Source: Chiloscyllium plagiosum (taxonomy: Eukaryota). From it: 64,000 bases of DNA. This document shows, one piece after another, positions 1-59,020 of the stretch. The stretch is taken from assembly GCF_004010195.1 (NCBI RefSeq), contig NC_057752.1, positions 15,833,348-15,897,347 of the forward strand, in the 5' to 3' direction. Numbering within the stretch: position 1 is the first letter of the stretch; every line of letters starts with the position of its first letter. The notes beneath the pieces are model-generated. The model made no database searches. It saw only the letters and a list, made by a program, of their open reading frames with translations, and was not told the origin of the DNA. The position numbers and the translations under genes were made by a program.

Positions 1-2719
1 TACTTTGGTCTCTGGATTAACAGTCTAACGATAATACCACTAGATCATTGCCATATCAAAGAATGGTTGGCGGCACTGGATTCTGGAAAGTCTGAGTCCC
101 GATAACATTGTGGCAATAATACTGAAGGCTTGTGCTCCAGAATCAGCCATGCCCCTAGTAGAGCTGTTCCAGTACAGCTATAACAGTAGCATCTACCTGA
201 CAGCATGAAAAAATGCGTGTATACAAAAACTAGGGCAAATCCAACTCCGTCAATTATTGCTCCAAACAGTCTACTTTCATCAATAAAGAAATGACAAGTG
301 TCATCAACAGTGCTGTCAAGCTGTGATGTCCAGTTTGAGTTCTGCCAGGGCCACTCAATTCCTGACCTCATTACAGCCTTGGTTCATAAATAGAGAAAGA
401 TTAATTCACGAGGTGAGGTGAGAGCGATTGCCTTGACACTGAGTATGGCATCAAGGAGCCCTGGCAAAACTGGAAAGAGCAACCTCTCCTCTGGTTGGAT
501 CATACTTGGCACATGAAGAGATTGTGATTGTTGGAGGTCAGTCAGCTTTATCCCCATGGCATTTCTTCAGGAGTTCCTCAGGGTAGCGTCCTAGGCCAAC
601 TTGAGCTGCTTCATCAATGACTATCCCTCCATCATAAGATCAGAAGAGGGGGCTGTTTGGTAACAATCGTGCAATGTTCACCACTTGTGACTCTGTCACT
701 GAAATAGTCCAAGTAAAAATGCAACAAGACCTGTACAGTATCCAGGCTTTTCTGACAAGTGGCAAGTAACATTCACATCACACAAATGCAGGCAATGACC
801 ATCTCCAATAATGGATAATCTAACCACTACACCCTGACTGTTTGTGGTGTTACCATCACTGAATTCTCCAATCAACAGAGGGTATTATGGTCCAGAAACT
901 CAACTGGAGACACGGTCGCTCAGTGGTTAGCACTATTGCTTCACAGTACCAGGGATCCAGGTCTGATTCCATCCTCGACTGACTGTCTGTGAAGTTTGCA
1001 CGTTCTCCCCATGTCTACGTGGGATTCCTCTGGTTGTTCAGATTTCCTCCCACAGTCCAAAGATGTGCAGATTAGGTGAATTGGCCATGCTAAATTGCCA
1101 GTAGTGTCTAAGGATGTGTAGTGAGAGTGGATTAGCCATGGAAAATGCAGAGTTACAGGGATAGGATAGGAGGTTGGGATGCTGCTCAGAGGGTTGGTGT
1201 GGACTTGATGGGCCAAATGACCTACATCCACACTGTAGAGATTCTATGATTTGTTAAATAAAACTGAACTCACAATGAATAATGCAGCTAGAAGAGCAGA
1301 TCGGAGACTAGGAATACTGCAGCATGTAACTCACCACGTGACTCCAAAAGCCTGTCCATCATCTGCAAGGACGAGTCAGGAGTGTGGAATAGTATCCACT
1401 TGCCTGGGTGAGTGAGCTCCAAGAACACTCAAGAGCTTAATACCATCCAGGACAAATCAGCCCCCGCTTGACTGGCACCACATTCGCAAACATCCACTCC
1501 TCTACCAACACATACTCGCAGTGTGTGCCATCTGCAACATGCACTGCAGAAATCCACCAAAGGTCCTTAGATAGCACCTACCAAATCCATGACCACTTCC
1601 ATCTCAACGGGCAAGGGCAGCACAAACATAAAAACACCACCACTTGCAAGTTCCTCTTTAAGCTGCTGAAAAACATGACTTGGAAATGTACAATAGTCAC
1701 CCCATATCCAAAGCAAACCCTATATATAAGTCATTCCTCAGTTACATACATACCTATGATAAAGTTTAATTGATTATGCAAAATAAAGGCTAACTGGATG
1801 CGAGTAAAGCGGGCAGCATGGGTACAGAGGACAAAGTTGAGTGATGTATGAGTGCGACAGGGCCGGAAGGTTTCACCATGTTAATCAGATTGGGGTGCAA
1901 TTTGAAACTTACAAATCATTTATTTCTGGAATCTTCCAGTGAATTTTTGCAGGCTGTGGGAAACTGCAGAAACCTAATCCGCGGATATGGGGATTCTACT
2001 GTATTGCCATTTCTCCTTTGTTGCTGGGCCAAGATCCTGAAGTTCCCTCCCTGAGGGCATTGTGGGTCAACCTACGGCATTTGAGCTACTGTGCTTCAAG
2101 AAGGCTGGCCACCATCTTCTCTAGGGCAGCCAGAGACGGGCAATACCCATCCTTCAATGCCTATGTCTCATGATTGAATACATTAAAAGAAAACACTATC
2201 TTGGGCATTGCAGGAAAACAAAATCATAGCAGGGTCAGTACAGGCCTTGGGACATGATGGTCAACTAGTCTTCTGCACTGGAGTGCTTGACTACAGTAAA
2301 AGCAGAAAGAACTGGAGAAATTCATTGGGTCTGCCAGCATTTGTAGAGAGAAAACTAGAGTTAACCTTTTGAGTTTGAATCCAATGTGATGCTTTTCTTT
2401 GGGACTGAAGGTATATGGAAAATTAAATCAGACTTTGTTTACCGTTGGCTGGGTGGGGGGGATGGGAAGGAATGGGTGGAACAAATGGTGAGATTGTTAG
2501 AATCTAAAGTTAAAGGCAGTACTAAAAGCTTGGCCAAAATAGGTTTTAAGGAGCATGTTTCCTTTTATACATTTGAATGAGTGTATTATGCCCAGACCAG
2601 AATTTATTGTCTGGCCCAATTTGCTGTGGAGAAGGTCATAGTGAGTGGTGCCTCTCGTGTGGTGAAAGTCTTCAGTGCAGTTGTTTGTTACTGGATTTGT
2701 CATTGCAGTCTTGGGACTC

Positions 2720-3488: not shown

Positions 3489-32104
<28,616 letters not shown>

Positions 32105-36429: not shown

Positions 36430-39295
36430 CTTCTGAATGTAGGTCTGCTTGTTGAGCTGGAAGGTTCATTTTCAGACGTTTTGTCACCATGCTCGGTAGC
36501 ATCTTCACTGAGCCTCCGGATGAAGCACTCGTGGTGTAGCCCCCTTTCTATTTTTATGTTTGGGTTTCTTTGGGTTGGTGATGTTATTTCCTGTGGCGAT
36601 GTCATTTCTTATGGTGATGTCATTTCCTGCTCTTTTTCTTGGGGGTGGTAAGTGGGATCCAAGTCAATGTATTTGTTGATAGGGTGCCAGTTGGAATGTC
36701 ATGCTTCTAGGAATTCTGGTACGTGTCTCTGTTTTGCTTGTCCTAGGAGGATGTGTTTTCCCAGTCGAAGTCGTGTCCTTCCTCATCCATATGTAAGGAT
36801 ACTAGTGAGAGAGGGTCATATCTTTTTGTGGCTAGTTGATATTCATGTATCCTGGTTGCTAGTTTTCTGCCTGTTTGTCCAATGTAGTGTCAGTTATAGT
36901 TCTTACAAGGTATTTTGTAAATGACATTAATTTTGCTTGCCTGTATAGGGTCTTTCAAGTTCATTAGCTGTTGTTTTAGTGTGTTGGTGGGTTTGTGGGC
37001 TACCATGTTGCCAAGAGGTCTGAGTAGTCTGGCAGTCATTGCCAAGATGTCTGATGTAGGGGAGAGTGGCTAGGGTTTCTGGACGTGTTTTGTCTGCTTG
37101 TTTGGGTTTGTTGCAGAGAAATCGGCAGAGTGTGTTCATTGTGTACCCGTTCTTTTTGAATACCCTGTATTGGTGATTTTCCTCTGCTGTTCATAGTTCC
37201 TCTGTGCTGCAGTGTATGGTAGCTGGTTGAAATAATGTTCTAATGTAGCTTTGTTTGTGGATGTCGGGATGATTGCTTCTGTAGTTCAGTATTTGTTCCA
37301 TACGTGTTATTTTCCTGTAGATACTGGTTTGAAGTTCCCCATTGGCTGTTCGCTCCACTGTGACATCTAGGCAGTTCGTTGTTATTTTCCTCCTCTTCAG
37401 TGAATTTTATGCCAGTAAGGGTATTATTGATAGTCTTGAATGTTTCCTCTAATTTGTTTCATTTAGTGATGACAATAGTGTTATCCACATAGCGGACCCA
37501 AAGTTTGGGTTGGATAGTTGGCAGAGCTGTTTGTTCGAGTCTCTGCATTACTGCCTCCGCCAGGAACCCTGATAAAGGAGATCCCTTGGGTGTTCTGTTG
37601 GTTTGTCTGTAGATTTTGTTGTTGAAGGTGAAGTGAGTGGTAAGGCATAGGCCCACTAGCTTGATGATGTTGCCCTTGCTGATGAAGTTGGTGGTGTTTG
37701 GTGCATGTCTTTGGTTCTTCTAATAGTGTAGTCAGTGTTTCCTTCGCCGGGTTGATGTTGATGGATGTGAACAGGGCTGTTACACCAAAGGAGACCATTA
37801 TTTTATCCTCTTCTATCTTGGTGTCTTTGATGGTCTTCAGGAATTCTTGGGTGGAGTGGATGGAGTGGTGTGAGTCTTCTACTAAGTGTTTTAGTCTTTG
37901 GTAAAGCTTCTTGGCCAATCTGTAAATTGGTGTTCCAGGTAGCGAGACCATAGGTCTGAGGGGGGCTCCTGGTTTGTGAATTTTGGGTAACTCATAGAAG
38001 CCTGGTGTGTTGGATTTGTCTGGTTTCATTGTTTGGAAATCTTATTCTAAGATTTCTGAAGTTTTTTGAGTACTGCTGTGATTTGGTTCTCTAGTTGTGG
38101 GGTCGGATCTATTGCCACTTGTTGGTAAGAATTAGTATTTGCAAGTAGTGCATTCACTTTCTCAATGTAGTCTCTTTGATTTAAAATGACCGTCAAGCAT
38201 CCTTTGTCTGAGATAGGATAGCAATGTTTTTATCTTCTTTTGCTATTTCTAGTGCTTTTCTTTCTTGTATTGAGTGTGTTACCTTCCTTTTTCCTGCTTA
38301 ATGTTGGTGCGACAGTCTGTCTGATAGTTTGCTGGGTTTCCTTTGATAGTTGATTGTCTTTCAGCGATGTTTCTAATGCTGCTAAGAAAGCTTTCTTGTC
38401 CACAACCTGGAAAGTGTAATTTAATTCTTTTACTACGATGGCTTTTTCAGTGTCTGTTAAGGGTCGGTCAGATAAGTTTTTTTATCCTGTTTCTGTGTTG
38501 TCAGTGTTGTTATTTTGTGTAAGTTTGTCAATATGGCTTTTTCAGTGTCTGTTAAGGGTCGGTCAGATAAGTTTTTTTTATCCTGTTTCTGTGTTGTCAG
38601 TGTTGTTATTTTGTGTAAGTTTGTCAATTTTTTTCTGCAGGTCTAGTTTTGATCATTTTCTGTGTTTGTTGCTATCTAATGTCTATTGCTTGTTATACTG
38701 TATCTGTCCATTCATGGTCTGTTGCATTTCTGAGTAAAGATTTTTGGCACAATGTTTCCTGGTTGTATTTAAGGAGTCAGTTGTGGGCATCATTAATCAT
38801 TTCTCTCAGCATTCTGTGGCCATTTTGTTCTGCCAATCATTTGGCTAGTGGGGTGTTAAGGGGAGGTTTGTGGTATTTAGGTATTTAGGTAGTACATTTA
38901 GGTAGTATCTGTTTCCGTAGGCATTCGTGTAGGAAGTACAGCTATTCATTGGTGGCGCTCTGTTGGATGGTATTGGTTTCCCATTTTCAGGCCAGTTTTA
39001 GCATATTGCACTCTTAGGTGTTAGCAAGTTTTGAGAAGATTTGTAGCTCAGGTTGAAGTTCTGGATGTAGGTTTACTCGCTGAGCTGGAAGGTTCGTTTT
39101 CAGATGTTTCGTCATCATACTAGGTAGCATCTTCAGTGAGCCTCCGGGTAATGCACTGCTCATGTAGCCTGCTTTCTCATTGTGTGTTTGATTTTCTTTG
39201 GGTTGGTGATGTCATTTCTGGTGGTGACATTGTTCCTTATGGTGATGTCATTTCCTATTCTTTTTCTCAGGAGGTGGTAAATGGGATTCAAGTCA
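36430..39295 (-). mobile_element. Near full-length degenerate Penelope-like element (Penelope/Poseidon type) with direct terminal repeats
   Basis: RT motifs FYELPKIHKPGAPLRPMVS, GSPLSGFLAEAVM, WVRYVDN. Direct repeats at ~36430-36665 and ~39025-39295 both end in ...GGTAA(G/A)TGGGAT(C/T)CAAGTCA. The 3' region is homologous to the GIY-YIG fragment at 9700-10375. Confidence 0.88.
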
Positions 39296-41005
39296 CTGAT
39301 AAAACTACACAGTGATGTCAACAAGTTTCATTCCACCATCAAACTCACCATGGACTACTCTCTACTATCTGTCTCATTCTTGGACACATGCATCTCCATC
39401 AAGGACGGACACCTCAGCACTACACTCTACCGCAAACCCACAGACAACCTCCCAATGATACACTTCTCCAGCTTCCACCCAAAACATATTAAAACAGCCA
39501 TCCCCTATGGACAAGCTGGACAAGCCCTACACATACACCGGATCTGCTCAGATGAGGAGGAACGTGACGGACACCTGGAAGAACTCAGGGATGCCCTCAT
39601 AAGAATGGGGTACAATGCTCAACTCATCGACCGCAGTTCCGACGTGCCACAGCAAGGAACCTCAGGAGACAGAGACGCGCTGCAACCGACAGGGTACCCT
39701 TCGTTGTCCAGTACACCCCAGGAGCCGATGAACTATGCCATGTTCTTCGTGACCTACAACACATTATCAATGAGGAAGCACCTCGTCAAGTCCTTCCCCA
39801 AACCACTACTGCTTGCCTTTAAACAACCATCAAACCTCAAACAGAGCGTTGTTCATAGCAAACTGCCTGGCTTTCAGGACAACTCCATACAACTCTTTCA
39901 TGGTAGGCGCTACAAGACGTGTCAGAGTGTGGACATGGATACCATCATTACGCGTAGGGACACTTCCCACCATGTACATGGCAGGTACACATGCGACTCA
40001 GCCAGCATTGTCTATCTTATACGCTGCAGACAAGGATGCCCTGAGGCATGGTACATTGGGGAAACCGAGCAGAGGCGACAGCAACAGATGAATGGGCATC
40101 ACACAACAATCAACAGACAGGAGTATTCCCTCCCAGTTGGAGAATACTTCAGCGGTCCAGGACATTCGACCTCGGACCTTCAGGTGACCATCCTCCAAGG
40201 CGGACTTCAGGACAGGCAGCAGTGAAAAGTGGCCAAGCAGAGGCTGATAGCTAAGTTCCATACACATAGGGAGGGCCTCAACCAGGACCTTGGGTTCATG
40301 TCACTCTACAAGGTGACCACCATTGCACTATACATACACACAGACATTCCTACACACACACACTCACACACACACACATATGCACTCCTATACACACACA
40401 GACACTCCCATACACAAACACGCACACAGGCACTCACACACACTCCCACTCACAACCCCCCATCCCAGACATACACACACACACAAAACCCACATGCACA
40501 CATATACATATATGTGTGCATGTGTACTTGAAGAGTTACATTGTACTTTGCTCAAAAACTGCATGAATCCATGTCAGACCCTGTTAACTTAACTTTTAAG
40601 ATTAGAATCAGTCTAAACATTATGGCACAGACGATAGAACGCAGGGAGCTAACACCTTCAACCTCTTAACATCTTATCTGGATGACACCAATTGTTACAA
40701 TTAACTTGAGAATGTAACTTTTAAAAAAGTTTTGTGATTTACACATGAAAGAAATGAAACTATTATGGTCATTCTAACAGATGAGAGACTCAACAAACAA
40801 TCAAGGTATTAGTCAATGTATAATTTCAGTTACATTACACTGTAAACATTTGTTATAAATTCTGTGCCTTACAATTGTGCCCTCCACAACCACCTGATGA
40901 AGGAGCGTCGCTCTGAAAGCTAGTGCTTCCAATTAAACCTGTTGGACTATAACCTGGTGTTGTGTGATTTTTAGCTTTGTACACCCCAGTCCAACACTGA
41001 CATCT
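39296..41005 (+). mobile_element. Penelope-like element, second family (possibly Neptune-type), 5'-truncated
   Basis: RT C-terminus (VSFLDT, LYRKPTD, AIPYGQA) and GIY-YIG (IVYLIRC...WYIGET) in ORF 39281..40225. CA-rich tract at 40330-40525; 3' repeat with hammerhead motif at 40891-40925. Confidence 0.88.
40891..40925 (+). ncRNA. Minimal type-I hammerhead ribozyme motif in a PLE terminal repeat
   Basis: cac-CUGAUGA-a-GGAGC(guc)GCUCU-GAAA-GC-UA-gug: conserved core boxes, stem I cac/gug, stem II hairpin, palindromic AGCU in place of stem III. Motif only; activity untested. Confidence 0.75.
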
Positions 41006-41019
41006 CCAAATCATGAGTG

Positions 41020-44000
41020 TTTTTTAAAATATATTTTTATTGAAAAAAAAGTTTTTAAAAATATTACAACAAATATAAAACAATGCAATTCAAAACAATA
41101 CAAAGAAAAGAACAGAAAAAACCCAACCTGCCCTCATGTACAAATAAATAATATATGTAGAAAAATATATAATAAAAAACTCAACTAATTATTTAACTGA
41201 ATAAATAATAACTAACAACAAACTAATAGATAGTAATAACTCAATGCAACCAAACAAGACACTCATACATTCGCAGTTCCTTCTCCTTGGATATTGGACT
41301 CGTAAAACACAATAGTTATGCTTATATAAAAGTCCTTGTTAGTGTGGTAGGTAAATCTGTGCCCAGGTATTTCAAAAAGGGCTGCCATGTCTTATAAAAA
41401 CTCTCAGTTTTGTGGTGTACCATATTTGTGAGAAAATCATGGGGAATATGCTCTATAACAATCTTCTGCAAACCCGACAGGCTCAGGAGGTTTTCGGGTA
41501 TCCAACATAGAACATAGAACATAGAACATAGAACATAGAACCAGGCCCTTCGGCCCAAGATGTTGTGCCGAACATTTGTCCTAGCTTAAGCACCCATCCA
41601 TGTACCTATCCAATTGCCACTTAAAGTTCGCCAATGATTCTGACTCTGCCACTCCCACAGGCAGCGCATTCCATGCCCCCACCACTCTCTGGGTAAAGAA
41701 CCCACCCCTGACATCTCCCCTATACCTTCCACCCTTCACCGTAAATTTATGTCCCCTTGTAACACTCGGTTGTGCCCGGGGAAAAAGTTTCTGACTGTCT
41801 ACTCTACCTATTCCTCTGATCATCTTATAAACCTCTATCAAGTCACCCCTCATCCTTCGCCATTCCAATGAGAAAAGGCCTAGCACTCTCAACCTATCCT
41901 CGTACGACCTATTCTCCATTCCAGGCAACATCCTGGTAAATCTTCTCTGCAACCTCTCCAAAGCTCCCACATCTTTCCTAAAGTGAGGCNNNNNNNNNNN
42001 NNNNNNNNNNNNNNNNNNNNNNNNNNNNNNNNNNNNNNNNNNNNNNNNNNNNNNNNNNNNNNNNNNNNNNNNNNNNNNNNNNNNNNNNNNNNNNNNNNNN
42101 NNNNNNNNNNNNNNNNNNNTGCAGCCGACAACAGCCCTCCTCATTATCCACAACTCCACCAATCTTCGTATTATCTGCAAATTTACTGACCCACCCTTCG
42201 ACTCCCTCATCTAAGTCATTAATAAAAATTACAAACAGCAGAGGACCCAGAACTGATCCCTGCGGAATTCCACTTGTAACTGGGCTCCAGGCTAAATATT
42301 TACCATCTACCACCACTCTCTGACTTCGACCGGTTAGCCAGTTTTCTATCCAACTAGCCAAATTTCCCTCTATCCCATGCCTCCTGACTTTCCGCATAAG
42401 CCTACCATGGGGAACCTTATCAAATGCCTTACTAAAATCCATGTATACTACATCCACTGCTCTACCCTCATCCACATGCTTGGTCACCTCCTCAAAGAAT
42501 TCAATAAGACTTGTAAGGCAAGACCTACCCTTCACAAATCCGTGCTGGCTGTCCCTAGCAAGATATTCTTTCTTGTTTTGTTGAAAAGTTTTTTTATGCG
42601 CATCTGCAGGGAACGCACTGGGCAGGCCAAGAAGAAGAGAGATCGGGTCCTTCTCCACCCCTACACCCAAAATCCTCTCCATTGCACCCGCCACAGCACT
42701 CCAGTATGTTTGAAGCCTAGCACAGGACCAGAGACAATGGGTAAGAGTGCCCGTGCAGGTCTTGCACTTGGGACATGTTGAAGATATCCCTGGTTTAAAT
42801 TTTGACAAACAGTCCAGAGCCAAATGGACCTTACAGAGGATCTTCAACTGTAAAGCATAGATCCTATTGTAAATTGATAAGTTCTTGCATTTTCCAAAAT
42901 ATCTTCCCACGCCTCTGAGGAGACCTCAATGCCTAGCTCTCTCTCCCACCCCCTGCAGAGTTAATCAAACTCATCTGAGGGGACACCCCCCCAATTGACG
43001 ATATAAAGTGCTGACAGAAAGTGTACTCTTAGCACTGAGCATCTTCCCCTCTAGGTCAGATTTGTAGGGATCAGTCAAAAGTGTAGGTTTTTTTTGAATA
43101 AAATCCCTGACTTGAAAAAAATGAAAGTGGTCCCTGTTAGCTAGTGCATATTTCCATGCTAACTGATCAAAGGACATCATTGCATCTCCCTCAAATAAAT
43201 CGTCCATGCAAGACACATCCCTAGCAGCCCAATGTTTGAATCCTGAATCTATCATCCTTGGTTGAAAAGCTAGCATGCCCACTGTAGGTGTAAAAGAAGA
43301 TATTTTGCCAATATTGCCTTCCCTCTGCCAAATTGCCCTCCATGCTTTAATAGTATTGATAACTATTGGGTTCCCTAATTGTCCTCATTTTTTTCAAAAA
43401 CAGCAAGCTAGTAAGATGACACCTAGCCTGGGAGGGTTCGATATCTAACCATATTGAATGAGGGTCCCCACAGGCCACTCATAGGTATAGCCTCTGATAT
43501 TGCAAAATTAATCTTATACCTTGAAAAGGTGCCAAATGCACTGATGTGTTGTGTGAGGCAAGGCACCGAAACTGTTGGGTTTGACAAAAACATTAGGACA
43601 TCATCTGCTTACAACAAAATCTTATGTAATTTTGACCCCACTTCTGAAGCTGATATATTGGGATCCCTATGAATGACCTCCACCAATGGTTCAATCCCCA
43701 ATGTAAAAAGCAGTGGCGAAAGGGGACAGCCCTGCCGACTGCCCCTAAAAATGTAAAAATTGCTTGATCACACCCCACTGGTGATGACCGCAGCGAGAGG
43801 GTCTCTCTAGAGATTCTTTACTCATCTTATAAAGACTTCGCTCCAGAGTATAGAAAAGGTATGGCCACTCAACTCGGTCAAATGCCTTCTCTGTATCTAG
43901 AGAAATCACTCATCCCTGTATTGACTGTTGTTGATATGCTTGAATTATGTTAAGCATCCTCCTAACATCTGTGGCCCTTTATGAAGTCCGTCTGGTCCTC

Positions 44001-44770
44001 TTTAACAATAGAAGGTAACATCGTCTCCAGCCTTAACACAAGAGTCTTCAAGAGGATTTAAAGTCCATATTTAAGAGTGAAATGGGCCCTGTATGAAACA
44101 CAGTCCTCTGGGACCATCCCTTTTTTAAGAGTAAATGAAATATTGGCCTCTCTCAGAGATGGCGGGAGAAAATCATGACTGTATGAGTCATTAAACATGT
44201 TGAGCATCGGGCCTGACAGTATGTTTATAAATTCCTCATAGAATTCACTGGCAAGTCCATCAGGATTGGGTGCCGTTCCACTCTGAAGGTGCTTCATAGA
44301 CTCCTGCACTTCTTGCATACGGGAACATTGAAAAAAGACTCTTTGCGTGGGGTCATGTCTGGGAGTCCAGATCCTTAAAAAAAGACTCCAATTTGGCCCG
44401 CCCCTCCTCACAACCCTCAGATTGGTATAACAGAGTAAAATCCCTGGAATGCCACATTAATCTATTTGGAGTTGCATGTTAGGTTCCCAGACCCTTCTCT
44501 AATTGCTATACTGGCTTGAGGGGCACTCATTTTCCTGGCAAGATATGCTAAGTCTTTGCCTGGCCTGTCACCATGGTCATAAAAGCTTTCCTTTGCAAAA
44601 GTAAGCTCCTTCTTTACTGTCTGTGTGGAATTCAATGCAGACCGCAGCATTATAATCCTCTGTACCGTGACCAACGAGGGCCTGTCAACGTAAGCCTTTT
44701 TGGCTGTCTTCAACTGTACTTTGAGGAGAGGTTGCTGATAACCCTTCTGCCACTTCGTCTGGTAGAGTAG
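41020..44770 (-). mobile_element. Second L1-clade LINE, ORF2 portion only, interrupted by a CR1
   Basis: Fragments parallel the first L1 ([52 protein letters not shown]). A-rich 3' end near 41020; the 5' side stops at telomere-like repeats. Confidence 0.88.
41505..42560 (-). mobile_element. Young CR1 3' portion inserted in the second L1 (spans a 130-N gap)
   Basis: Uninterrupted RT frame [13 protein letters not shown]...[21 protein letters not shown]...SKFADNTK; (CATAGAA)n tail at 41505-41540. Confidence 0.9.
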
Positions 44771-44774
44771 GATA

Positions 44775-44907
44775 AAAGTAAGGGTTAGGATTATGATTAG
44801 GGTTAGGATTGGGTTAGGGTGAGGGTTAGGGAGGCCCGTGCGATAGGGTCAGGGTTAGGATTAGAGTTTAGGGGTGAGGGTTAGGGTTAGCATTAGGATT
44901 AGGGATA
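44775..44907 (+). repeat. Degenerate (TTAGGG)n-like tract running into a gap
   Basis: TTAGGG, TGAGGG, TCAGGG and TTAGGA variants. Confidence 0.75.
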
Positions 44908-45407
44908 NNNNNNNNNNNNNNNNNNNNNNNNNNNNNNNNNNNNNNNNNNNNNNNNNNNNNNNNNNNNNNNNNNNNNNNNNNNNNNNNNNNNNNNNNNNNN
45001 NNNNNNNNNNNNNNNNNNNNNNNNNNNNNNNNNNNNNNNNNNNNNNNNNNNNNNNNNNNNNNNNNNNNNNNNNNNNNNNNNNNNNNNNNNNNNNNNNNNN
45101 NNNNNNNNNNNNNNNNNNNNNNNNNNNNNNNNNNNNNNNNNNNNNNNNNNNNNNNNNNNNNNNNNNNNNNNNNNNNNNNNNNNNNNNNNNNNNNNNNNNN
45201 NNNNNNNNNNNNNNNNNNNNNNNNNNNNNNNNNNNNNNNNNNNNNNNNNNNNNNNNNNNNNNNNNNNNNNNNNNNNNNNNNNNNNNNNNNNNNNNNNNNN
45301 NNNNNNNNNNNNNNNNNNNNNNNNNNNNNNNNNNNNNNNNNNNNNNNNNNNNNNNNNNNNNNNNNNNNNNNNNNNNNNNNNNNNNNNNNNNNNNNNNNNN
45401 NNNNNNN
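44908..45407. other. Assembly gap of exactly 500 N, probably a fixed-size scaffolding spacer
   Basis: Round length and unrelated flanks. The other gaps (12701-13127, 35808-36248, 41990-42119) have irregular sizes and sit inside single repeats. Confidence 0.85.
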
Positions 45408-45589
45408 GTATGGAATGCTTTGCCTGCAACAATAGTAGGTTCGCCATCTTTAAGTACATTTAAGTCGTCATTGGACAAGCATATGGACGTACATGGAATA
45501 GTGTAGGTTAGATGGGCTTCAGATTGGTATGACAGTTCGGCGCAACATCAAGGGCCAAAGGCCTGTACTGCGCTGTAATGTTCTATATG

Positions 45590-45880
45590 ACCGCGGTAGC
45601 CAGGGGAAGGAGATGTGACTGTGGTAGCGAGGGGAAGGAGATGTGGCTGTGGTAGCGAGGGGACGGAGATGTGACTGTGGTAGCGAGGGGACGGAGATGT
45701 GACTGTGGTAGCGAGGGGACGGAGATGTGACTGTGGTAGCCAGGGGACGGAAATGTGACTGTGGTAGCCAGGGGACGGAAATGTGACTGTGGTAGTGTGG
45801 GGAAGGAGATGTGACTGTGGTAGCGAGGGGACGGAGATGTGACTGTGGTAGCAAGAGGATGGAGATGTGACTGTTGTAGG
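45590..45880 (+). repeat. 28-bp minisatellite, about 10 copies
   Basis: Unit GGAGATGTGACTGTGGTAGCGAGGGGAC; period confirmed at 45609 and 45637. Confidence 0.9.
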
Positions 45881-46019
45881 GAGGGGATGAAGAGCTTATG
45901 CCCAAAACGTCGATCCTTCTGCTCCTCGAATGCTGCCTGACCGGCTGTGCTTTTCCAGCATCAAACTCTCCTACACAGAATAGATGCATTCCAACAAGAA
46001 AGATGCCAATGGGAGGAAC

Positions 46020-49655: not shown

Positions 49656-50339
49656 ATTTGAGGTAGTTCACTTGATTGGGAGTAGAGGATTGTGGGCCAA
49701 TGGTCCCTCTAGGATGTGCAACCACTGGGAGGTTCCTTACAAGCTGATTAATGTGTCACACATTGGCTTCTGTTTGCATATGCCATTATTATGGTGGAAA
49801 GGTATTGTAGTAGTGAGTGGGGAGGGTATGGGGTAGGGAGCAAGGGGTAGATGGGGGCACGGAGTGGGGTCTTTTTTCGATTAACAGTGGGACAAGCTGG
49901 GTCCATTATCACTTGAGAGTTTGCAATCACAAGAGGTCATTTTATTGAACCATACAAGATCCTGAAGGGATTTGATAGGTTGAACACAGAGGATGTGGAG
50001 GGGCCAGCACTAGGCAATGCAGTTTAACAATAAGACAAAGTGAAAATAAATTGTTTCTTTGAGTCTTTGAAACTCTCTCCTCTAGAAAGTGGAGGCAGAT
50101 TCATCAATTTTTTTTAAGAAAGAGATATCTAGGCACTTGACCAATAAGACAGTTAAAGGGTATTAGAGATTGGGCAGGACAAACATGACTTTGTCAAATG
50201 CTAGGGCAGGCCTGAGGGGCCGAACAACTTATTCCAGCATCTGCAGTCATTGTTTTTACCTAGCTTATTTTTCTGCCAATTCATATATTCACATAATGTA
50301 AAGAATGAGAAGTTTGGTTCCTCTGAGGGTACACATTAC

Positions 50340-50593
50340 CTGCTGACTGGTCAGTCCTATTGCATTTCCCAGTTCTTGTTGCTGGGAAGCAGTGAGATAC
50401 CGCTGCAGCTGGAAACGTTGTTGGAGAACCCGCAGCTGCTCAGCACTGAAGATTGTCCGACCTTTGTATTTCTTTGATATGGATTCCTCAGTCAATTCTC
50501 TCTCTTCTACAGAATCTAACCAGGAGTCTCCATGGGCCTTGAGCCTTTCCAAATTATCCTGGGAATCTGCCTCAGATAGGGTGGTGTTGGAGG
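50340..50593 (-). CDS. Homeobox exon (helices 1-2) of an ANTP/NK-like homeobox gene, NANOG-like
   Basis: Acceptor tttatctttgttgattgcag|CC (phase 1); donor CAG CAG|gtaatg (phase 0). Encodes ...KYKGRTIFSAEQLRVLQQRFQLQRYLTASQQQELGNAIGLTSQQ with homeodomain landmarks R5, F8, Q12, L13, L16, F20, Y25, L26, L34, L40. The intron falls after residue 44, the position known in NANOG, DLX and related genes. Confidence 0.88.
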
Positions 50594-50774
50594 CTGCAAT
50601 CAACAAAGATAAACTCTTTGAAAACTGTTTCTAAATTGTAGCAGAGAACACACCTTCAAAATTAAATGCAAGGTTCTTTCCCATCTGCTGTGAACTGTTG
50701 AGCTGCTTGTTCAACATCCATTACTGGACAAACGATAGAAAAACTATGAGCAGTAAGTTTGGAAAAGCTGCATG

Positions 50775-51740
50775 CTTCAGTGTTATAAAGCACAGAAACA
50801 GGCCCTTCGGTTCAACTCATCCATGCCAACCAAGTTTCCAAAATTGAACTAGACTGAATTGCCTGTGATTTGGTTCTGAACCCTCTAAGCCTTTCCTATT
50901 CATCTACCTATCCAAATGTATTTTAAATGTTGTCATTGTACCTGTCTCCACCACTGCCTGTGGCATATACACTCCACTCTCTGTGTGAAAAAGTTGCCAC
51001 ACAGGACCCTTTTAAATTTTACCCTCTCACCTTAAAACTATGCTCTCAACCTTCAGCTTCCTATGCTCCAGGGAAAAAAGTCTCAGTTTCTCCAGACCCT
51101 TCTTACAAGCTTCTAATCTCAGCCACATCCTTGTTAATGGTTTTTCACATCCTTTCCAATTTAATAACATCCTTCCCATAGCAGAGCGATCAGACTGTAC
51201 GCAGTACTCCACATGTGGCCATACCAATGTCTTAGGTAAAAACAATGACTGCAGATGCTGGAAACAAGATTCTGGATTACTGGTGCTGGAAGAGCACAGC
51301 AGTTCAGGCAGCATCCAAGGAGCAGTAAAATCGACATTTCGGGCAAAAGCCGAAACGTCGATTTTACTGCTCCTCAGATGCTGCCTGAACTGCTGTGCTC
51401 TTCCAGCACCACTAATCCAGAATACCAATGTCTTGTACAGCTTTAACAACTCCTGCACTCAATGCTTTGACTGATGAAGGTAAGCAGTCAGATGTCTTCT
51501 TTACCACTCTACCTTTAAAGCCACCTTCCAGGAATTATGTACCTGCACCTCTAGGTCTCTCTGTTCAATAACACTCTCTAGGGCCCTACCATTAATTGTA
51601 TATGTCCTGCTGTAGTTTGTCTTATAAAACTGCAACACCTTAGATTTATCTGAATTAAGCTCCACCTGCCATTTCTCAGCGCGCTGGCCCTAGTTGATCA
51701 AGGTCCTGTATTACTCCGAAATAACCTTCTTCACTGAGAG
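50775..51740 (-). mobile_element. CR1 3' portion in an intron of the homeobox gene, with a nested hairpin insertion
   Basis: LKLYKTLV...PHVEYCVQ remnants and a CR1-type tail. Confidence 0.75.
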
Positions 51741-52633
51741 ACTCCAACTCTCTCTCACGAGAATTATCTTGAGGATGATCCAGGCTGTTTATTATTGGGT
51801 GTCAAATGTTCATAAGCCAATTTCCTAACCCATATTCACTTCATCAACAAGTATGCCTGCAATCAGTTCCATAACATCCCCTGTCTTTGGATCTGTTTCA
51901 GTTCTTTCTCTGGCTGAAACCCTCATTCACTTGTTTCTCATGTTACCTCTACACTCGACATTTCCAATATTTTGCACAGGATATTTTGTACCATTCTATC
52001 TACCCTCTTTCCATCTGCACTCAAGCAAAATACTGCTACCCATAGCTTAGTCCATGCCAAGGCCTGTTTACACACTTTATCTCCACCAGCTGCACTTGCC
52101 AACCTAAACTGAAATCATGATTAACTTCATTCTCAGATCACAAATTTTATGCCGGGGACACAATAACAAAAGTAGGGAGATCAAAAGTGATGGCTTCTAA
52201 AATTGAGTAGCCTTACTCTCAATGTAAGGTCATTGAGCAAGGCAGGAACCTGCGACCACATTGTAGTTAGTCATTGTCCTTGGGACAGAATTGAGAAAAC
52301 TGAAGGAAGGTAGCAAAAAAACCTTGCACCTGAGTTAAAAACCTACAAGGTTATATGTCAAGTGCTGGAACATGGGATTAGAGTAGATGAATGTTCAATG
52401 ACCATTGCAGAAATAATGGGCCAAAAGGTCTCTTTCTGTTCTGTAGAAACATTTGTGACTCTAGTACTACAATCTTCAAGTTTTCAGCAGAATGGTGTTT
52501 TCAGATTTACTAGCCTTGGCCCGTGGTATCTTTCTGATCAGAGCTGCTCTCCAAAGCAGTGCAGTCCAGAATATGCAATGTGCAGAACTCAGGCTCATAA
52601 GCCCTTGCTGCATGGATTTCATATGTTCCTTAC

Positions 52634-52762
52634 CCACAGATGCAAAGGTTCCTGTCATTACTTCTTTCACCACAAAACCCATGTCACTGGTCTCAGCAAA
52701 GTCTCTTTGTACTGAAGAATATTCGTATCCATAACCTCCAACAGATCCAGGAAATGCACCAG
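52634..52762 (-). CDS. Predicted internal coding exon (129 nt, phase 1-1) of the homeobox gene
   Basis: Acceptor gtcatgttttgtgcag|CT and donor GTG G|gtaagg in non-repetitive sequence. Open frame GAFPGSVGGYGYEYSSVQRDFAETSDMGFVVKEVMTGTFASV; phases fit both neighbours. No homology support. Confidence 0.55.
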
Positions 52763-55700
52763 CTGCACAAAACATGACATACATTTGTCTTGGTCTAACA
52801 TACTTAGGCAGCAATATCAAAAGTCTCGAATGTTGCCCAACACATAGGTCCTTTTGTATCTCTGGAAAGGCGCAGCAGGTCAGGCAGCATCCAGGGAACA
52901 GGAGAATCGACGTTTCGGGCATAAGCCCTTCTTCAGGAGAAGGGCTTATGCCCGAAACGTCGATTCTCCTGTTCCCTGGTTTCCTGAAGAAGGGCTTATC
53001 CCCGAAACGTCGATTCTCCTGTTCCCTGGATGCTGCCTGACCTGCTGCGCCTTTCCAGCAACACATTTCCAGCTCTGATCTCCAGCATCTGCAGACCTCA
53101 CTTTCTCCTTTTGTATCTCTACCTCATTTTCATTCAGGCAAATATTTTAACTACTACTGTAATTTGCTCTTTTTCTTCTGGCAATGAGAAGTGGGGTTGG
53201 GCAATGAGCGAGGTAGCTGGGTTGAAGGACCTTGAAATATTTAATATGGTTACAAAGATTAGATATGTATAATTTGTTGTTGTCTGGTCACTCAAAGTGA
53301 CAATGAGAGTCAGCAAGATAATAAGTCTACACACTCTCTGGTAGAGGCAACCAGATAGCAACATTTAATAGCTTGTCCTCATTACCCTTGGGCACCAAGT
53401 CATACAGGGGAAAAGCCCATCGAGTTTGCATCTACCTAATTTAATGCAATGATACAATAGTGGGATTTGGGGGGTCCTTCAGCTAATTATTTTGTCATCA
53501 ACAGGAAAATTCACAGTGGAGAAGAATAATAGGTACCCAATGGTGATCCTCAGTGGCTTGATTGGAAATGCCTCAAACTATCCAACTCCTAACCCCTTGG
53601 ATCAAGCAAAGTTTTGCAGATGCTGGAGTTATGAAACAAAAACAAACAAAAATTGCTGGGGAAACTGCAGACTCGCTAGTTTTTCTAACAATTTCTGTTT
53701 ATGTTCCTAACCCTTTGCCCTGCAGGGTGGATTGAATCCAGGCAAATTAAGGAAGTGCTGCACTATTAGGTGTTATCTTTTATGAGAGATGTTGATAGTT
53801 CATGGCACCATTGGAAAAATAGGACAGGATCTTCACCAACATTTAATAAAGAATGTCCAATAGATCTACTTAGATTTTCAGGAGACATTTTCATTATGTA
53901 TCCCAAGAATAAAAAGTCAGGTAGAAGGTTGAAGAGAAAATTGAGCAGCGTATTCAAAAAGGAAGACAGCCTTGTAATTATGGTGATGGTTCCCCAAGAC
54001 CTTTATTAGAGTGCAATGGGAGAAGGATTCAAACATTCACTTCCCTACAGATACTTAAACATGTAAGATCAGTGCTTACAATTTAGAAATAAAGAAAATA
54101 TTGAGGCCAGTTATTGTACTGGATACGGTTTTAATTAAAACCCAACATCAAAAGTAACAGATAGTATGGGATTATTCCAGGATGATGCTGCTAATGAGAA
54201 ACAATAGCTATAAAGGGCAACTGGTGGAATGAAGAAGGCCAGGAGATGTTTGTTAATTATTTGTTGACAGAATGGACAGAGAAAGACCACTGGCAAGTCA
54301 GTGACCAAGGGCCAAATTGGAATTGCAATTAAACTTGAATAGAGTATTAGGAAAATTATTGCATTATTGGAAATGTTTCTTGTTGGTCATGGTACATCAG
54401 CATCAAATGGTCTGAAGCAGCATTTTTTGCCAATCCCTTTTTGTCCTGATCAGCTGGCAAAGCCACTTCAGAGGGCAGTTATGGGTCAGCACTATTGCTG
54501 TGGGTCTGGAGTGACATCTAGATGAGCAGATTCACTTTCCTAAAGGGCATCAGTGAACCAGATAGGCTTTTATGATTGACTGTGGTTACACCATGGTCAC
54601 CATTAGAAGCAGCTTTTAATTCCCGATTTTATTTTTATTGAATTCAAATTTCATTATCTGACATGCTGGGTTTCAAAGTCATGTCCGACCAACATTAGAA
54701 CTCTTAATGACCAATCTAGTGATGTGGTGACCTCTTCTGATCTCCTTCCACACCGTGACTATCTAGGATTCTATCAGTAGTCAGCTCGACAGTGCTATTC
54801 TTTAAAGAGAGAACTACCAGGATTTGAAATAGAGACCAGACATGGTAAATGTTGATAGTGCCTTTGTAACTGGAAAACTATTTCCAGTGGGATGTTTGCA
54901 GACAACACAAAACCTTGCTGCTTAGTTAGTCATAAAAATGGCCGGAGACTGCTGCAAGATGTCAATGAATCAGTCATATGGGTAGAAAAGTGACACATTG
55001 AATTAATCTGATGAAGTGGGAGGGGAGAGATGCATTAGGGGAGGTCAAACAAGGCTAATGGAACACAATTAATGGGAAAATCAGTCATTGTACACTGAGG
55101 GGACATGATGACTTTGTCGTATTATCACTAGACTATTAATCAGAGACTGAGATAATGTTCTGGGGACCTGAGTTTGAATCCAGCTGTAGCAGTGAAATTT
55201 GAATTCATTTGGGAGTGGCACAGTGTCTGAGTGGTTAGCACTGCCTCACATCTCCAGGAACCCACGTTCGATTCCAACTTGGGTGACTGTGGAGTTGCAC
55301 ATTCTCCCCGTGTCTGCATGGGTTTCCTCCGAGTGCTCTTGTTTCCTTCCACAATCCAAAGATGTGCAGTTTAGGGTGGATTAGCAATGGGAAATTGTCT
55401 CATAGTGTTCTGGGATGTGCAGGTTAGGATGGATTGGCCATGAGAAATTGTCATTTCAGGCAAAAGCCCTTCATGAAGGGCTTTTGCCCGAAATGTTGAT
55501 TTTCTTGCTCCTTGGATGCTGCCTGACTGACTGTGCTTTACCAACAACACACTCTTGGCTCTAATCTCCAGCATCTGCAGTACTCACTTTCGACATGAGA
55601 AATTGTCCCCTAGTGTCCAGGTATGTGTAGGTTAGGGTGGATTGCCCAGGGGCAAATATAGGATATTAGGGTAGGGGAATGGGTCTGGGTGGGTTACTGT

Positions 55701-57057
55701 TTGGAAGGTTGGTGTGGACTTGTTGGGCCAAAGGGTCTGTTTCCACACTATAGGGGATTCTATGAAATGAAGGATCTTCCTTTGAGTCAGAGTCATACAG
55801 CATGGTAGGAGCCTGTGAAGGAGTGAGGATTGAAGGAAATTTGGTGTGTACGTCTGTAGGTCCTTGAGGACAACAAGGAAGGTTGATAGGGCGATTAAGA
55901 AAGCTACGGGATAGTTACCTTTATTAGTTGAGGCATAGAATACAAGAGCCGGAGGTTATGATGGATCTGAATATAACATTAGTAAGGCCACCACTGCAAT
56001 ACAGTTTCAGGTGCCACACCAAAGGAAATGTGTGATTGCATTAGTCAAGATGCAGAGGAGATTGGCCAGGATGTAACCTGAGTTGGAGTGACTCAACTAC
56101 GAACAGCAAGTGACAGTTGTTTGCGTTAAAGTAGAAAAACCTGAGGGGGATCCAATTGAGGTATACAAAATTGAGGGTTATAGATAGAGTAAATAGAAAG
56201 AAATTTCTCCCTATAATATGGACTTCAATAACCAGGGCCATAGATTGAAGGTAAAGGGCAGGAAGTTTAGCGAAGAAAGAATTTTTAAAAAACGCACAGG
56301 TTGGTGAATATCCAGAGCTCATTGTCTGAAAGGGTGACAGAGACAGAAACCATTACTACAGTCAATTGGTTAGATGAACAATTGAAATGCTGCAGCATAC
56401 AATGCTGGAAAATGGGACTAGGTTGGTTGGATACTTGTGACTGGCACAGACATGATATGCCAATGGGCCTCTTTGCATGTCACATAGCTGAGAAAAATGT
56501 GACAGGCTGAGGGTCTTCAATTGGGAAGAGAGAGGCAGACGGCCGGATTGATTGAGGTGTGCAAAAGTGTCAGGGGTGTGGACAGAGTGGATGGGGAAGG
56601 CACTGTTTCCCCCTAGCAGGGGGCTCAGTAACTGGGGTGGGAGGGAGCGAGGGAGAGAAGCACAGATTTGAAAGTGACTGATAGAAAGAATACAGCAGAC
56701 ATGAGGAATTTTTGAATTCAGAGGATGTTCAGCAGCTGGAACTCAGTGCATGAAATAGCTGCAGGGTCTGAAATCAATTTAAAAAGGCATCAGGACATGA
56801 CCCTTGAGCCCTGTAACTTGCAGCGGGAAGTGGGATCAGGCTGCTCTTTCAGCTAGTACAGACCCAATGGGCAGAGTGGCCTCTTTCTGCACCATAACTT
56901 TGACTCTAATGGCTATGGAGACCAAGAAGGTCCAACAGACAAAATGACCTATCTCTGATGGAGCTGTGGAAGCATGTATTGCCTATTACTTTCTCCAAAT
57001 TTTCAAAGTTAAAAATCACACTAGACCAGGTTACAGTGCAACAGATTTATTCGGGAA

Positions 57058-57093
57058 CATTAGCTTTCGGAGCACTGCTCCTTCATCAGGTGG
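57058..57093 (-). ncRNA. Minimal hammerhead ribozyme motif inside a short PLE-derived palindrome (57008-57190)
   Basis: Reverse complement reads ccac-CUGAUGA-a-GGAGC(agu)GCUCC-GAAA-GC-UA-aug, with a perfect stem II. Confidence 0.65.
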
Positions 57094-57229
57094 TTTGCTC
57101 GGAAAGCTAATGATTCCAAATAAACCTATTGGACTATAACCTGGTATTGTGTGATTTTTAACTTTATCCACCCCAATCCAACACTGGCTCCTCTCTCCCC
57201 AATCAATTATCAGTGCCTTCATTCAGAGG

Positions 57230-58072
57230 GTCTCCTTCCTATTGGAGAGATGTTGTGAAACTTGAAAGGGTTCAGAAAAGATTTACAAGATGTTGCCAGG
57301 GTTGGAGGATCTGAGCTACAGGGAGAGGCTGAACAGGCTGGGGCTGTTTCCCCTGGAGCGTCAGAGGCTGAGAGGTGAATTTTAGATTAGATTAGATTAC
57401 AGTGTGGAAACAGGCCCTTCGGCCCAACAAGTCCACACCGACCCGCCGAAGCGAAACCCACCCATACCCCTACATTTACCCCTTATCTAACACTACGGGC
57501 AATTTAGTATGGCCAATTCACCTGACCCTGCACATCTTTGGACTGTGGGAGGAAACCGGAGCACCCGGAGGAAACCCACGCAGACACGGGGAGAACGTGC
57601 AAACTCCACACAGTCAGTCGCCTGAGGCGGGAATTGAACCCGGGTCTCTGGCACTGTGAGGCAGTAGTGCTAACCACTGTGCCACCGTGCCGCCCACTAA
57701 TAGAACTTATAGAGGTTTACAAAATCATGAGGGGCACAGATAGGATAAATAGATAAAGTATTTTCCCTGGGGTGGGGGAGTCCAGAACTAGAGGTTTAAT
57801 ATGAGAGTGGAAAGATATAAAAGAGACTGAAGGGGCAATTTTTCATGCAGAGGGTGGTGTGTGTATGGAATGAGCTGCCGGAGGAAGTGGTGGAGGCTGT
57901 TACAATTGCAATATTTAAAAAGCATCCGAATGGGTATATGAATAGAAAGGGTTTGGAGGGATATGGACCGGGTGCTGGCAGATGGGACTAGATTGGGTTG
58001 GGATATCTGGTCGGCATGGACGGGTTGGACCGAAGGGTCTGTTTCCGTGCTGTACATCTCTATGACTCTATG
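57230..58072 (+). mobile_element. CR1/HER1-type LINE 3' end split by a SINE (57381-57696)
   Basis: The LINE sequence stops at ...aggctgagaggtga and resumes at cttatagaggtttacaaaatcatg; tail ctctatgactctatg. Confidence 0.85.
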
Positions 58073-58845
58073 AGAGAAATGTGTGCGAAACAGCATCTTT
58101 ATTCTAACCAGTGAGATCATTACATCTTTTGAACATGTGGAAGTCCGAGTTTTCTGAATGTAGAGATTGCTGTGTGGTTCAGAAGTTCGTCACCAAAGTT
58201 CGCACGCACACACACAGCGTTCCCTATGAATTCTGTCCACACTGACTCTCAGCAATAGGAGTTACACACCGAGAGCCGCCAGTGTACTGCCCAGAGTCTG
58301 CTACAATTCAGAGAAAATGAGATCTGCAGATGCTGGAAATCAGAGTCAAAAATGGTGGCGCTGGAAAAACACAGGCGGTTAGGCAGCATCTGAAGAGCTT
58401 GTGCTTCTCCAGCGCCACACTTCTTGAATCTGCTACAATTCGCAGCTCCCTCCGTGCTCAGGCCCAACATGTCAGCAGCAGGGGATTGAGCTGTGCCCAA
58501 TACAGGGCTGAGCCGGCAGGGGTTAGGGAGGGGATGGGAGCAGCAGGATGCTCCGCTGCTGTTCTCAGTTTGATCCAGGTAAAGCCCAATAAACTCCAGC
58601 AGGACAACAGAGGTATTATTTGCCAGACTAACACATCCAACCGCATCCTCATATCCACAGAATACAGCTATTCGGCCCATCGTGACTATGCCGTCCCTTT
58701 CAAACAGCCGAGGCAGTTGGAAGAGGAGGTTCATTTTTCCGAACCCTCTTTTGAAAGTACCTGCTTCCCGTCGGGAGCCGTGTTGTGTGGGCACCCACCT
58801 GGATCCGGTTTTCAGCCTCCGAGCCCGGTGGTCACTGCCCCTTAC

Positions 58846-59020
58846 CTGAATTCCAAGGCTCGCCCTCCACACGTTGGCGTGGACTTTCCAAGAAGTCTCT
58901 CTGGGTGACGGGAGTCTGGCCACAGCTGAAGGCACCCTTCCTTTGGTAACCGAAGCAGCAATCCTCCATCTTCGCAGATGGCTTGGTTTGGAAGTGGAAA
59001 TTCAGAGAAAGTTGGTCCAT
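58846..59020 (-). CDS. Predicted first coding exon of the homeobox gene
   Basis: ATG at 59020, with a second ATG in stronger context (aagATGG) 17 codons later. Frame MDQLSLNFHFQTKPSAKMEDCCFGYQRKGAFSCGQTPVTQRDFLESPRQRVEGEPWNS ends at a strong phase-1 donor TCA G|gtaagg. Lies in a unique, locally CpG-richer island. Confidence 0.6.

Follow-up and report, generated by a model that had tools for sequence, protein, structure and literature searches.

A NANOG-lineage homeobox gene and its tandem twin at a third chromosomal address in the bamboo shark

Introduction

The gene considered here is of the same lineage as NANOG of bony vertebrates. The gene, which we call gene A, lies in part within a stretch of 64,000 nucleotides of the bamboo shark Chiloscyllium plagiosum (contig NC_057752.1, positions 15,833,348 to 15,897,347; hereafter, the window). 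Bony NANOG is found at two addresses, AICDA-SLC2A3 in lobe-finned vertebrates and TM9SF1-IPO4 in ray-finned fish, and has undergone tandem duplication at least four independent times (PMC3894937). PMC3201656 counts an intron that falls between residues 44 and 45 of the homeodomain among the NANOG features, and describes the pair Tyr42-Lys43 as unique to Nanog orthologues, raising reprogramming without being required for it. A threonine and a methionine are named as VENTX/NANOG marks in a legend of PMC7190326.

No clear chondrichthyan NANOG came out of the 2014 survey of Scerbo, which also had no outgroup that could tell the ancestral bony locus or the lineage of the functional shift (PMC3894937). 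Seven elasmobranch Nanog homeodomains were then listed by Scerbo and Monsoro-Burq in 2020 (PMC7190326, Table S1B). Their bamboo-shark entry is letter-identical to the gene A homeodomain over residues 5-58, and six further sharks and rays are given, all as homeodomain only. Hence, the existence of gene A is already known, and the view of early surveys cited in an earlier note on this DNA, made from the letters alone, that NANOG is restricted to bony vertebrates, agrees with the 2014 survey but not with the 2020 list. The sequence list and tree of the 2020 paper, picture pages aside, contain neither bony NANOG, nor a chimaera Nanog, nor the second shark gene (gene B) described below, and its legend gives no synteny for shark nanog; as bony NANOG is absent from that tree, NANOG orthology was not tested there. 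The accessible parts of PMC9331430, PMC9492771 and bioRxiv 10.1101/2023.12.21.572714 hold nothing on the shark locus. No publication on the shark NANOG pair or its neighbours was found, most subscription journals and the bioRxiv supplements being outside the search.

Results

Gene A is a five-exon gene divided by an assembly break

Three minus-strand exons in the window (59020-58846, 52762-52634 and 50593-50340) join into 558 nucleotides (nt), or 186 stop-free codons, with canonical AG/GT borders and cumulative phases 1, 1 and 0. Coding exon 1 (58846..59020, 175 nt) starts with the ATG at 59020, ends in phase 1 at a GT donor, and has 89% identity with residues 1-57 of P0001, a full-length relative. 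Exon 2 (52634..52762, 129 nt, phase 1-1) is likely optional, because the whale-shark model P0003 skips it. Exon 3 (50340..50593, 254 nt, phase 1-0) has homeodomain residue 44 as its last codon, so that residues 1-44, comprising the arm, helices 1 and 2 and the loop with Ser42-Gln43, occupy positions 50340..50471. This exon matches positions 2-43 of the Pfam Homeodomain (E 6.1e-9, 36 bits at a cut-off of 22.9), and its best natural matches in the PDB are NANOG homeodomains (E 1.1e-8), one engineered double-engrailed construct ranking above them. The count of 23 identical residues out of 44 was reproduced against the primate NANOG homeodomain P0053. The earlier note had thus read the window correctly as regards the single frame of about 186 residues, its end in homeodomain residues 1-44, the size and phases of the homeobox exon, the identity count, and Ser42-Gln43 in place of Tyr42-Lys43. 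It had also taken the absence of Arg31 for a NANOG-like trait; Gln31 is real here, but it occurs only in three carpet sharks, and Arg31 is retained in six of the nine gene A orthologues, so that its loss does not mark NANOG.

Within the window gene A is incomplete, as the helix-3 exon was not found there by pattern, by score scan or by tblastn. When P0001 was used as a query against the shark's own genome assembly (G000), this exon (102 nt) was found on the unplaced contig C99662 at 16042-15941, and the last exon (426 nt) is at 14423-13998 of the same contig. The five exons (175/129/254/102/426 nt) encode 361 residues, 350 of which are identical to P0001. Intron 3 contains a 28-bp tandem repeat, a minisatellite, at 45585..45893 of the window, and the same array ends C99662 (18640-20448), the contig bearing the last two exons of gene A and the first of gene B; seven units were counted in the window, 36 on C99662 and, over about 1.27 Mb of loci, one at another place. 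Since the end of C99662 and the gap-adjoining region of the window carry the same array, the truncation of gene A is an assembly artefact, and the 500-N gap at 44908..45407 is the likely site of its 3' half and of gene B. The join is imperfect, the 177 bases between the gap and the repeat having no match to C99662. Across the gap from the repeat, around 44780-44907, there is a degenerate TTAGGG-like run. Two public models, P0191 and P0192, extend gene A into intron 3.

Gene A is intact, spliced and conserved. Of the 131 candidates scored in the exon search, eight were within the limit of E 1e-3; they come without exception from sharks and rays and are 68-100% identical over the exon, more than a chance likeness. 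Orthologues were identified in nine named elasmobranch species, which are carpet sharks, catsharks, one sawshark, one sawfish, one skate and one stingray. Chimaeras and cyclostomes were not represented among the matches listed (the best 120 of 559 in one search), which does not imply absence. Contigs of sequence runs X4, X6 and X12 cover exon 2, and in two of the four runs exons 2 and 3 adjoin in one contig record (X4 record 17 and X6 record 24), as expected from the junction 52634/50593 proposed earlier; run X1 had no depth on the exons and several runs had none of the sequence words sought, neither of which counts as evidence. The junction between exons 1 and 2 (58846/52762) is based on the splice signals, on public protein models and on contigs extending 79 and 87 letters past exon 2. 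All seven exon differences listed between the contigs and the window are synonymous and at third positions. One could suppose that gene A is a decayed relic without a recognition helix, given that the window has no helix-3 exon and that the public model P0191 for the locus continues into the intron; this is refuted by the intact exons on C99662, by the splicing with synonymous differences only and by the orthologues in sharks and rays, and its probability is practically nil.

Gene A belongs to the NANOG lineage

The tree was built from 60 columns and 55 homeodomains (nine of gene A, five of gene B, 11 of bony NANOG and 30 outgroups from the same genome, six of them partial); sequences given in print in the papers were inspected by eye, outside the tree. 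A single clade unites gene A, gene B and bony NANOG, with support of 97/97 for 55 rows and 95/98 for 30 rows, and bony NANOG forms its own clade (97/82 and 92/79). The groupings of gene A with BSX, with BARHL and with DLX/MSX were rejected (p-values of the approximately unbiased test, p-AU, 0.005-0.008). The gene A homeodomain is 55-63% identical to bony NANOG, whereas its identity with other shark homeoboxes does not exceed 52%, and its language-model neighbours are Nanog clusters at 0.96, the score of gene B being 0.90. Gene A belongs to the NANOG lineage in the wide sense.

The exon plan and individual residues were also compared. The intron between residues 44 and 45 is present in gene A, but as it also occurs in BSX and VENTX, it is not diagnostic alone. 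Helix 3 is encoded by the short phase 0-0 exon, followed by the last exon; in the 2014 alignment, exon 3 of NANOG is of the same short helix-3 type (PMC3894937). Thr47, Gln50 and Met54 of helix 3 are present in gene A, one ray having Ile47. At position 31 the gene A sequences have Gln (3/9) or Arg (6/9), those of gene B Arg (5/5), and bony NANOG has Met or Ile (11/11); hence the hydrophobic residue 31 of bony NANOG is missing from both gene A and gene B sequences. Outside the homeodomain, blastp detected no likeness between gene A and bony NANOG (best E 7e-4, out of register). Gene A was not filed as a strict NANOG orthologue, because it lacks Tyr42-Lys43 and the synteny of bony NANOG. Of the two alternatives in the earlier note, a chondrichthyan NANOG orthologue or an unnamed sister gene of the NKL subclass, the affiliation with the NANOG lineage is borne out by the 97/97 clade, while either of the two may apply, since there is a second gene in tandem and the locus is unlike either bony NANOG locus.

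Gene B is the tandem twin of gene A

The second-best match of the homeodomain exon within the bamboo-shark genome is gene B, on the unplaced contig C79904. Exon 1 of gene B (C99662:5642-5486, minus strand) lies 8.4 kb downstream of the gene A stop, on one contig and one strand with it. The middle exons are at C79904:340-533 and 1449-1556 (plus strand). The last exon is on scaffold C43, that of the window, at 15706303-15706953 (plus strand), inverted and 127 kb to the left of the window, so that a local scaffolding error is suspected. Gene B has four exons, Cys42-Lys43, Pro28 and Gln60, of which the four-exon plan, Lys43, Pro28 and Gln60 agree with bony NANOG, and its own oddities Lys13, Tyr49 and Arg31; Cys42-Lys43, Pro28, Gln60 and Arg31 occur in all five sequences. 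It shares with gene A the clade, strand, locus and intron positions around helix 3.

Gene B orthologues were found among 4 of 60 candidates and in a sevengill shark (P0074-P0077, P0180). The proteins of genes A and B have the same longest-contig figure in the bamboo shark, the sawfish and the cloudy catshark, and in P0006, an old model from a 25-kb catshark scaffold, gene A is joined to the gene B exon for helix 3. A homeobox profile covered 1.06 Mb, made up of seven unplaced contigs and the final 859 kb of C43 (142 kb N), and yielded only the four exons of genes A and B; with a bird NANOG query on the genome no third intron-split NANOG-like gene ranked above them. Source names for the two genes number at least eight, including HMX3-like, Hox-B4-like, GBX-1-like, Dlx4a-like and ceh-31-like; for gene B they are NANOG-like, ceh-31-like, bagpipe-like and uncharacterized. 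Thus, source names are inconsistent for both genes, and "shark Nanog" as used for a marker so far is likely one of the two.

The pair occupies a 17p13-type block

Neighbours were considered over about 0.45 Mb of C43; in the hunt for their exons, 208 of 210 candidates were scanned with Pfam and 20 were chosen by eye. The window itself contains three plus-strand exons of PSMB6 (5016-5144, 17486-17614 and 19723-19866; Pfam Proteasome), whose best PDB match is proteasome beta type-6 (E 2e-23, vs. 5e-19 for beta type-9). Elsewhere on C43, a HES-type bHLH exon lies at 15.74 Mb, and 15.98-16.06 Mb is taken up by a PA-RING ligase of the RNF13/RNF167 type; lipoxygenase (ALOX) genes follow from 16.16 Mb onward, with an enolase at 16.21 Mb. 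The latter scored 149 bits as alpha, 148 as beta and 139 as gamma; the copy on scaffold C34 being clearly alpha, the C43 enolase is by elimination of the beta type (ENO3-like). Some exons at 16.28-16.39 Mb (L185-L196), on which Pfam is silent, we take to be SPAG7-like. PSMB6, RNF167, ENO3, SPAG7, ALOX15/12 and HES7 are human 17p13 genes (PMC5791184). The address of the pair is thus a 17p13-type block, a third NANOG locus that we have not found in print; nor was the twin gene, whereas gene A itself is already known.

AICDA, forkhead and TM9SF genes had no match on C43. In G000, AICDA (on a 4.7-kb contig), TM9SF1, one SLC2A gene and a FOXJ-type exon sit on unplaced contigs, and with the gaps between genes this made a second species necessary for synteny. 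In the small-spotted catshark, AICDA, FOXJ2 and GNB3 are at 83-90 Mb of chromosome 16 (PMC9664204, Table S2). By contrast, a contig of 16,133,577 bases carries the gene A protein of this catshark, compared with more than 89 Mb for the AICDA chromosome, provided that one assembly is concerned. As the catshark AICDA block and gene A are on different sequences, the address of gene A is a third one. No candidate for triosephosphate isomerase was found in G000, and no gamma-type enolase; the NECAP search gave one gene, on C34. Since the former two were not found and AICDA and the others are unplaced, the 12p13-type block appears to be poorly assembled in G000, and an empty NANOG site in it is not demonstrable there. 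The TM9SF1 contig (52.7 kb, of which 15.7 kb is N) showed no recognisable IPO4. In the sugar-transporter search, 9 of 164 candidates were scored.

Several other features were observed. Near the scaffold end, C43 at 16.28-16.39 Mb carries a G-protein-coupled receptor, a gene for RAMP4 and exons of ARS2/SRRT in both orientations, and the homeobox at 11.26 Mb of C43 (L157:2925-3113) is presumably of the POU6 type. On the unplaced 90-kb contig C101902 (L160-L165), a class I glucose transporter adjoins a Rel-family gene. The window contains broken retrotransposon frames on the minus strand (21514-25856 and 41978-44456) and on the plus strand (9537-10280, 37481-38041 and 39281-40225), which, by appearance only, we assume to be of the L1 and Penelope types, respectively.

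Discussion

To our reading that gene A, a five-exon gene of 361 residues from the NANOG lineage, and gene B are a co-orthologous tandem pair, produced by a single duplication at a moved locus, we assign about an even chance. One tandem duplication would have happened on the shark line before the shark-ray split; gene A would subsequently have lost Tyr42-Lys43, and gene B Tyr42. In addition, NANOG would have changed its chromosome block in two lineages or more.

A number of observations weigh against co-orthology, or against the data used for it. The branch uniting genes A and B is unsupported (45/0 and 78/2), the groupings of A with bony NANOG and of B with bony NANOG are equally good (p-AU 0.39 and 0.40), and these three arrangements differ by 0.04 log-likelihood. 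The tree includes one ray-finned fish and has no amphibian, coelacanth, lungfish, chimaera or cyclostome. Outside the homeodomain, genes A and B have no detectable likeness (best E 0.029); inside it they share 31 of 60 residues (52%), compared with 36-39 of 60 shared by each with sauropsid NANOG, and such a low likeness fits a duplication as old as the split between sharks and bony vertebrates. Tyr42-Lys43 is absent from gene A, being Ser-Gln in all nine sequences, although this mark is not absolute even in NANOG, some bird copies having Tyr-Gln and a guinea-pig copy Cys-Lys. The synteny of gene A fits neither AICDA-SLC2A3(-FOXJ2) nor TM9SF1-IPO4. The test did not reject a grouping of gene A with VENTX (p-AU 0.14), which is 8 lower in log-likelihood. 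Finally, the four sequence runs, compared with window positions 50000-53000, are either classed as RNA by an automatic guess or have no stated kind, with the tissue unrecorded, and of the 24 runs listed none is recorded as RNA.

The locus may point to a different history. The genome duplications of early vertebrates gave rise to the human regions 17p13 and 12p13 as duplicates of each other (ENO3/ENO2, SLC2A4/SLC2A3, VAMP2/VAMP1), although we found no paper describing this pair of blocks. If the shark pair were sister genes of NANOG whose block is a paralogue of the one holding tetrapod NANOG, bony vertebrates having lost the pair and sharks the AICDA-linked copy, then the 17p13-type neighbours (PSMB6, the RNF13/167-type RING gene, ALOX, the beta-type enolase and HES; PMC5791184), the separation of gene A from the catshark AICDA block on chromosome 16 (PMC9664204), and the separate clade of bony NANOG (97/82) would all be accounted for. 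We nevertheless find this unlikely, as it requires reciprocal losses, the internal branches of the tree are short, and NANOG is a proven mover, its address already differing between ray-finned and lobe-finned fish (PMC3894937). The more specific statement, that the block is the genome-duplication twin of 12p13 and shark Nanog hence not an orthologue, we likewise rate as rather unlikely; if true, reciprocal loss of several early NANOG-type genes would explain the three addresses, in ray-finned fish, lobe-finned vertebrates and sharks. It is similarly doubtful that only one gene of the pair is the one-to-one NANOG orthologue, the other being a diverged sister gene of greater age that bony vertebrates have lost. 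For gene B in this role one can cite Lys43, Pro28 and Gln60, kept in 5/5, the four-exon plan and an SPDSST motif upstream of the homeodomain in the sawfish protein; for gene A, the higher likeness in helices 1 and 2 and the higher language-model score. The near-identical likelihoods of the two trees, each 0.04 off the best, and the oddities of gene B (Lys13, Tyr49, Arg31) speak against either.

Alternatively, a tandem pair of the ancestral jawed vertebrate may have been sorted, ray-finned fish keeping the A type and lobe-finned vertebrates the B type, which would account for the different loci and the reported functional differences. Gene A and sturgeon Nanog share a run of 12 residues in helices 1-2, gene B resembles sauropsid NANOG at residues 24-28, and the groupings A with sturgeon and B with sarcopterygians were not rejected (p-AU 0.077 and 0.085). 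However, the mirror groupings score the same (0.077 and 0.085), monophyly of bony NANOG is preferred (97/82 and 92/79), rays carry Ser27 in gene A, no match between gene A and the sturgeon protein exists outside the homeodomain (best E 0.053), and the groups were chosen after the alignment was seen; all ray-finned sequences of the 2014 alignment have Tyr42-Lys43 (PMC3894937). We therefore regard such sorting as improbable. Still less credit, and very little, goes to gene A being a VENTX-type or other NKL gene that merely resembles NANOG. The p-AU of the VENTX grouping, Ala28 and Leu60 shared with VentxA, and the intron shared with BSX and VENTX would agree with it, but the shark's own VentxA and VentxB, 45% and 39% identical to gene A compared with 55-63% for NANOG, lie elsewhere, on scaffold C22. 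The VentxA helix-3 exon runs to the stop and there is no short phase 0-0 exon, and gene A has neither Glu42-Thr43, nor three exons, nor a VENTX grouping in the tree. The possibility that the homeodomain groups with another family, raised earlier, is thus dismissed for DLX/MSX, BSX and BARHL, and not for VENTX.

As to function, the gene A homeodomain is intact, with Gln50 and a NANOG-type recognition helix, and Arg5, Thr47, Gln50, Asn51 and Met54 are all present. Homeodomains with these residues bind sites with a TAAT core. Judged by its residues, the gene A product likely binds TAAT cores as a transcription factor and, by analogy with NANOG, is likely a regulator of the early embryo or germ cells, with POU5 and SoxB1 as its presumed partners in cells that are pluripotent or of the germ line. 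A consensus Sox-Oct element was not enriched (32 matches vs. 33.8 expected). Chondrichthyan POU5 proteins sustain self-renewal of mouse stem cells (PMC9492771). Because the Y42E K43T mutant of NANOG reprograms mouse cells less well (PMC3201656), gene A with Ser42-Gln43 is predicted to be a weaker reprogrammer of mouse cells than NANOG.

The origin of NANOG bears on the time when vertebrate pluripotency control arose. Sharks supply the outgroup, yet with two genes and a third address, and the twin and this address make the question of NANOG orthology directly testable. Since the NANOG marks are split between the pair (likeness in helices 1-2 in gene A; Lys43 and four exons in gene B), the reprogramming assay in Nanog-null mouse cells described in PMC3201656 can test these residues, and could also show whether reprogramming capacity predates bony vertebrates.

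Among the known systems, VENTX, Ved and BSX share with gene A the NKL subclass, the intron between residues 44 and 45, Thr47 and Met54; they differ in Glu42-Thr43, in having three exons and in carrying helix 3 in the last exon, and are on scaffolds C22 and C35 here. The helix 2 of coelacanth NANOG2, compared by eye with P0028, is nearer to sturgeon and teleost Nanog than to tetrapod NANOG (PMC3894937, supplement 1), and may hint at two old copies in bony vertebrates. Gene A is unlike bony NANOG in Ser42-Gln43, Ala28, Leu60 and one extra exon; it has neither a SPDSSTSP-type motif nor tryptophan after the homeodomain, and its neighbours are of the PSMB6/RNF167 kind, in contrast to AICDA-SLC2A3 or TM9SF1-IPO4. 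On the other hand, gene A and bony NANOG share the clade, the intron between residues 44 and 45, Thr47, Gln50, Met54 and the short phase 0-0 helix-3 exon, and the shark pair is comparable to the tandem duplicates of bony NANOG in coelacanth, turtles and birds (PMC3894937).

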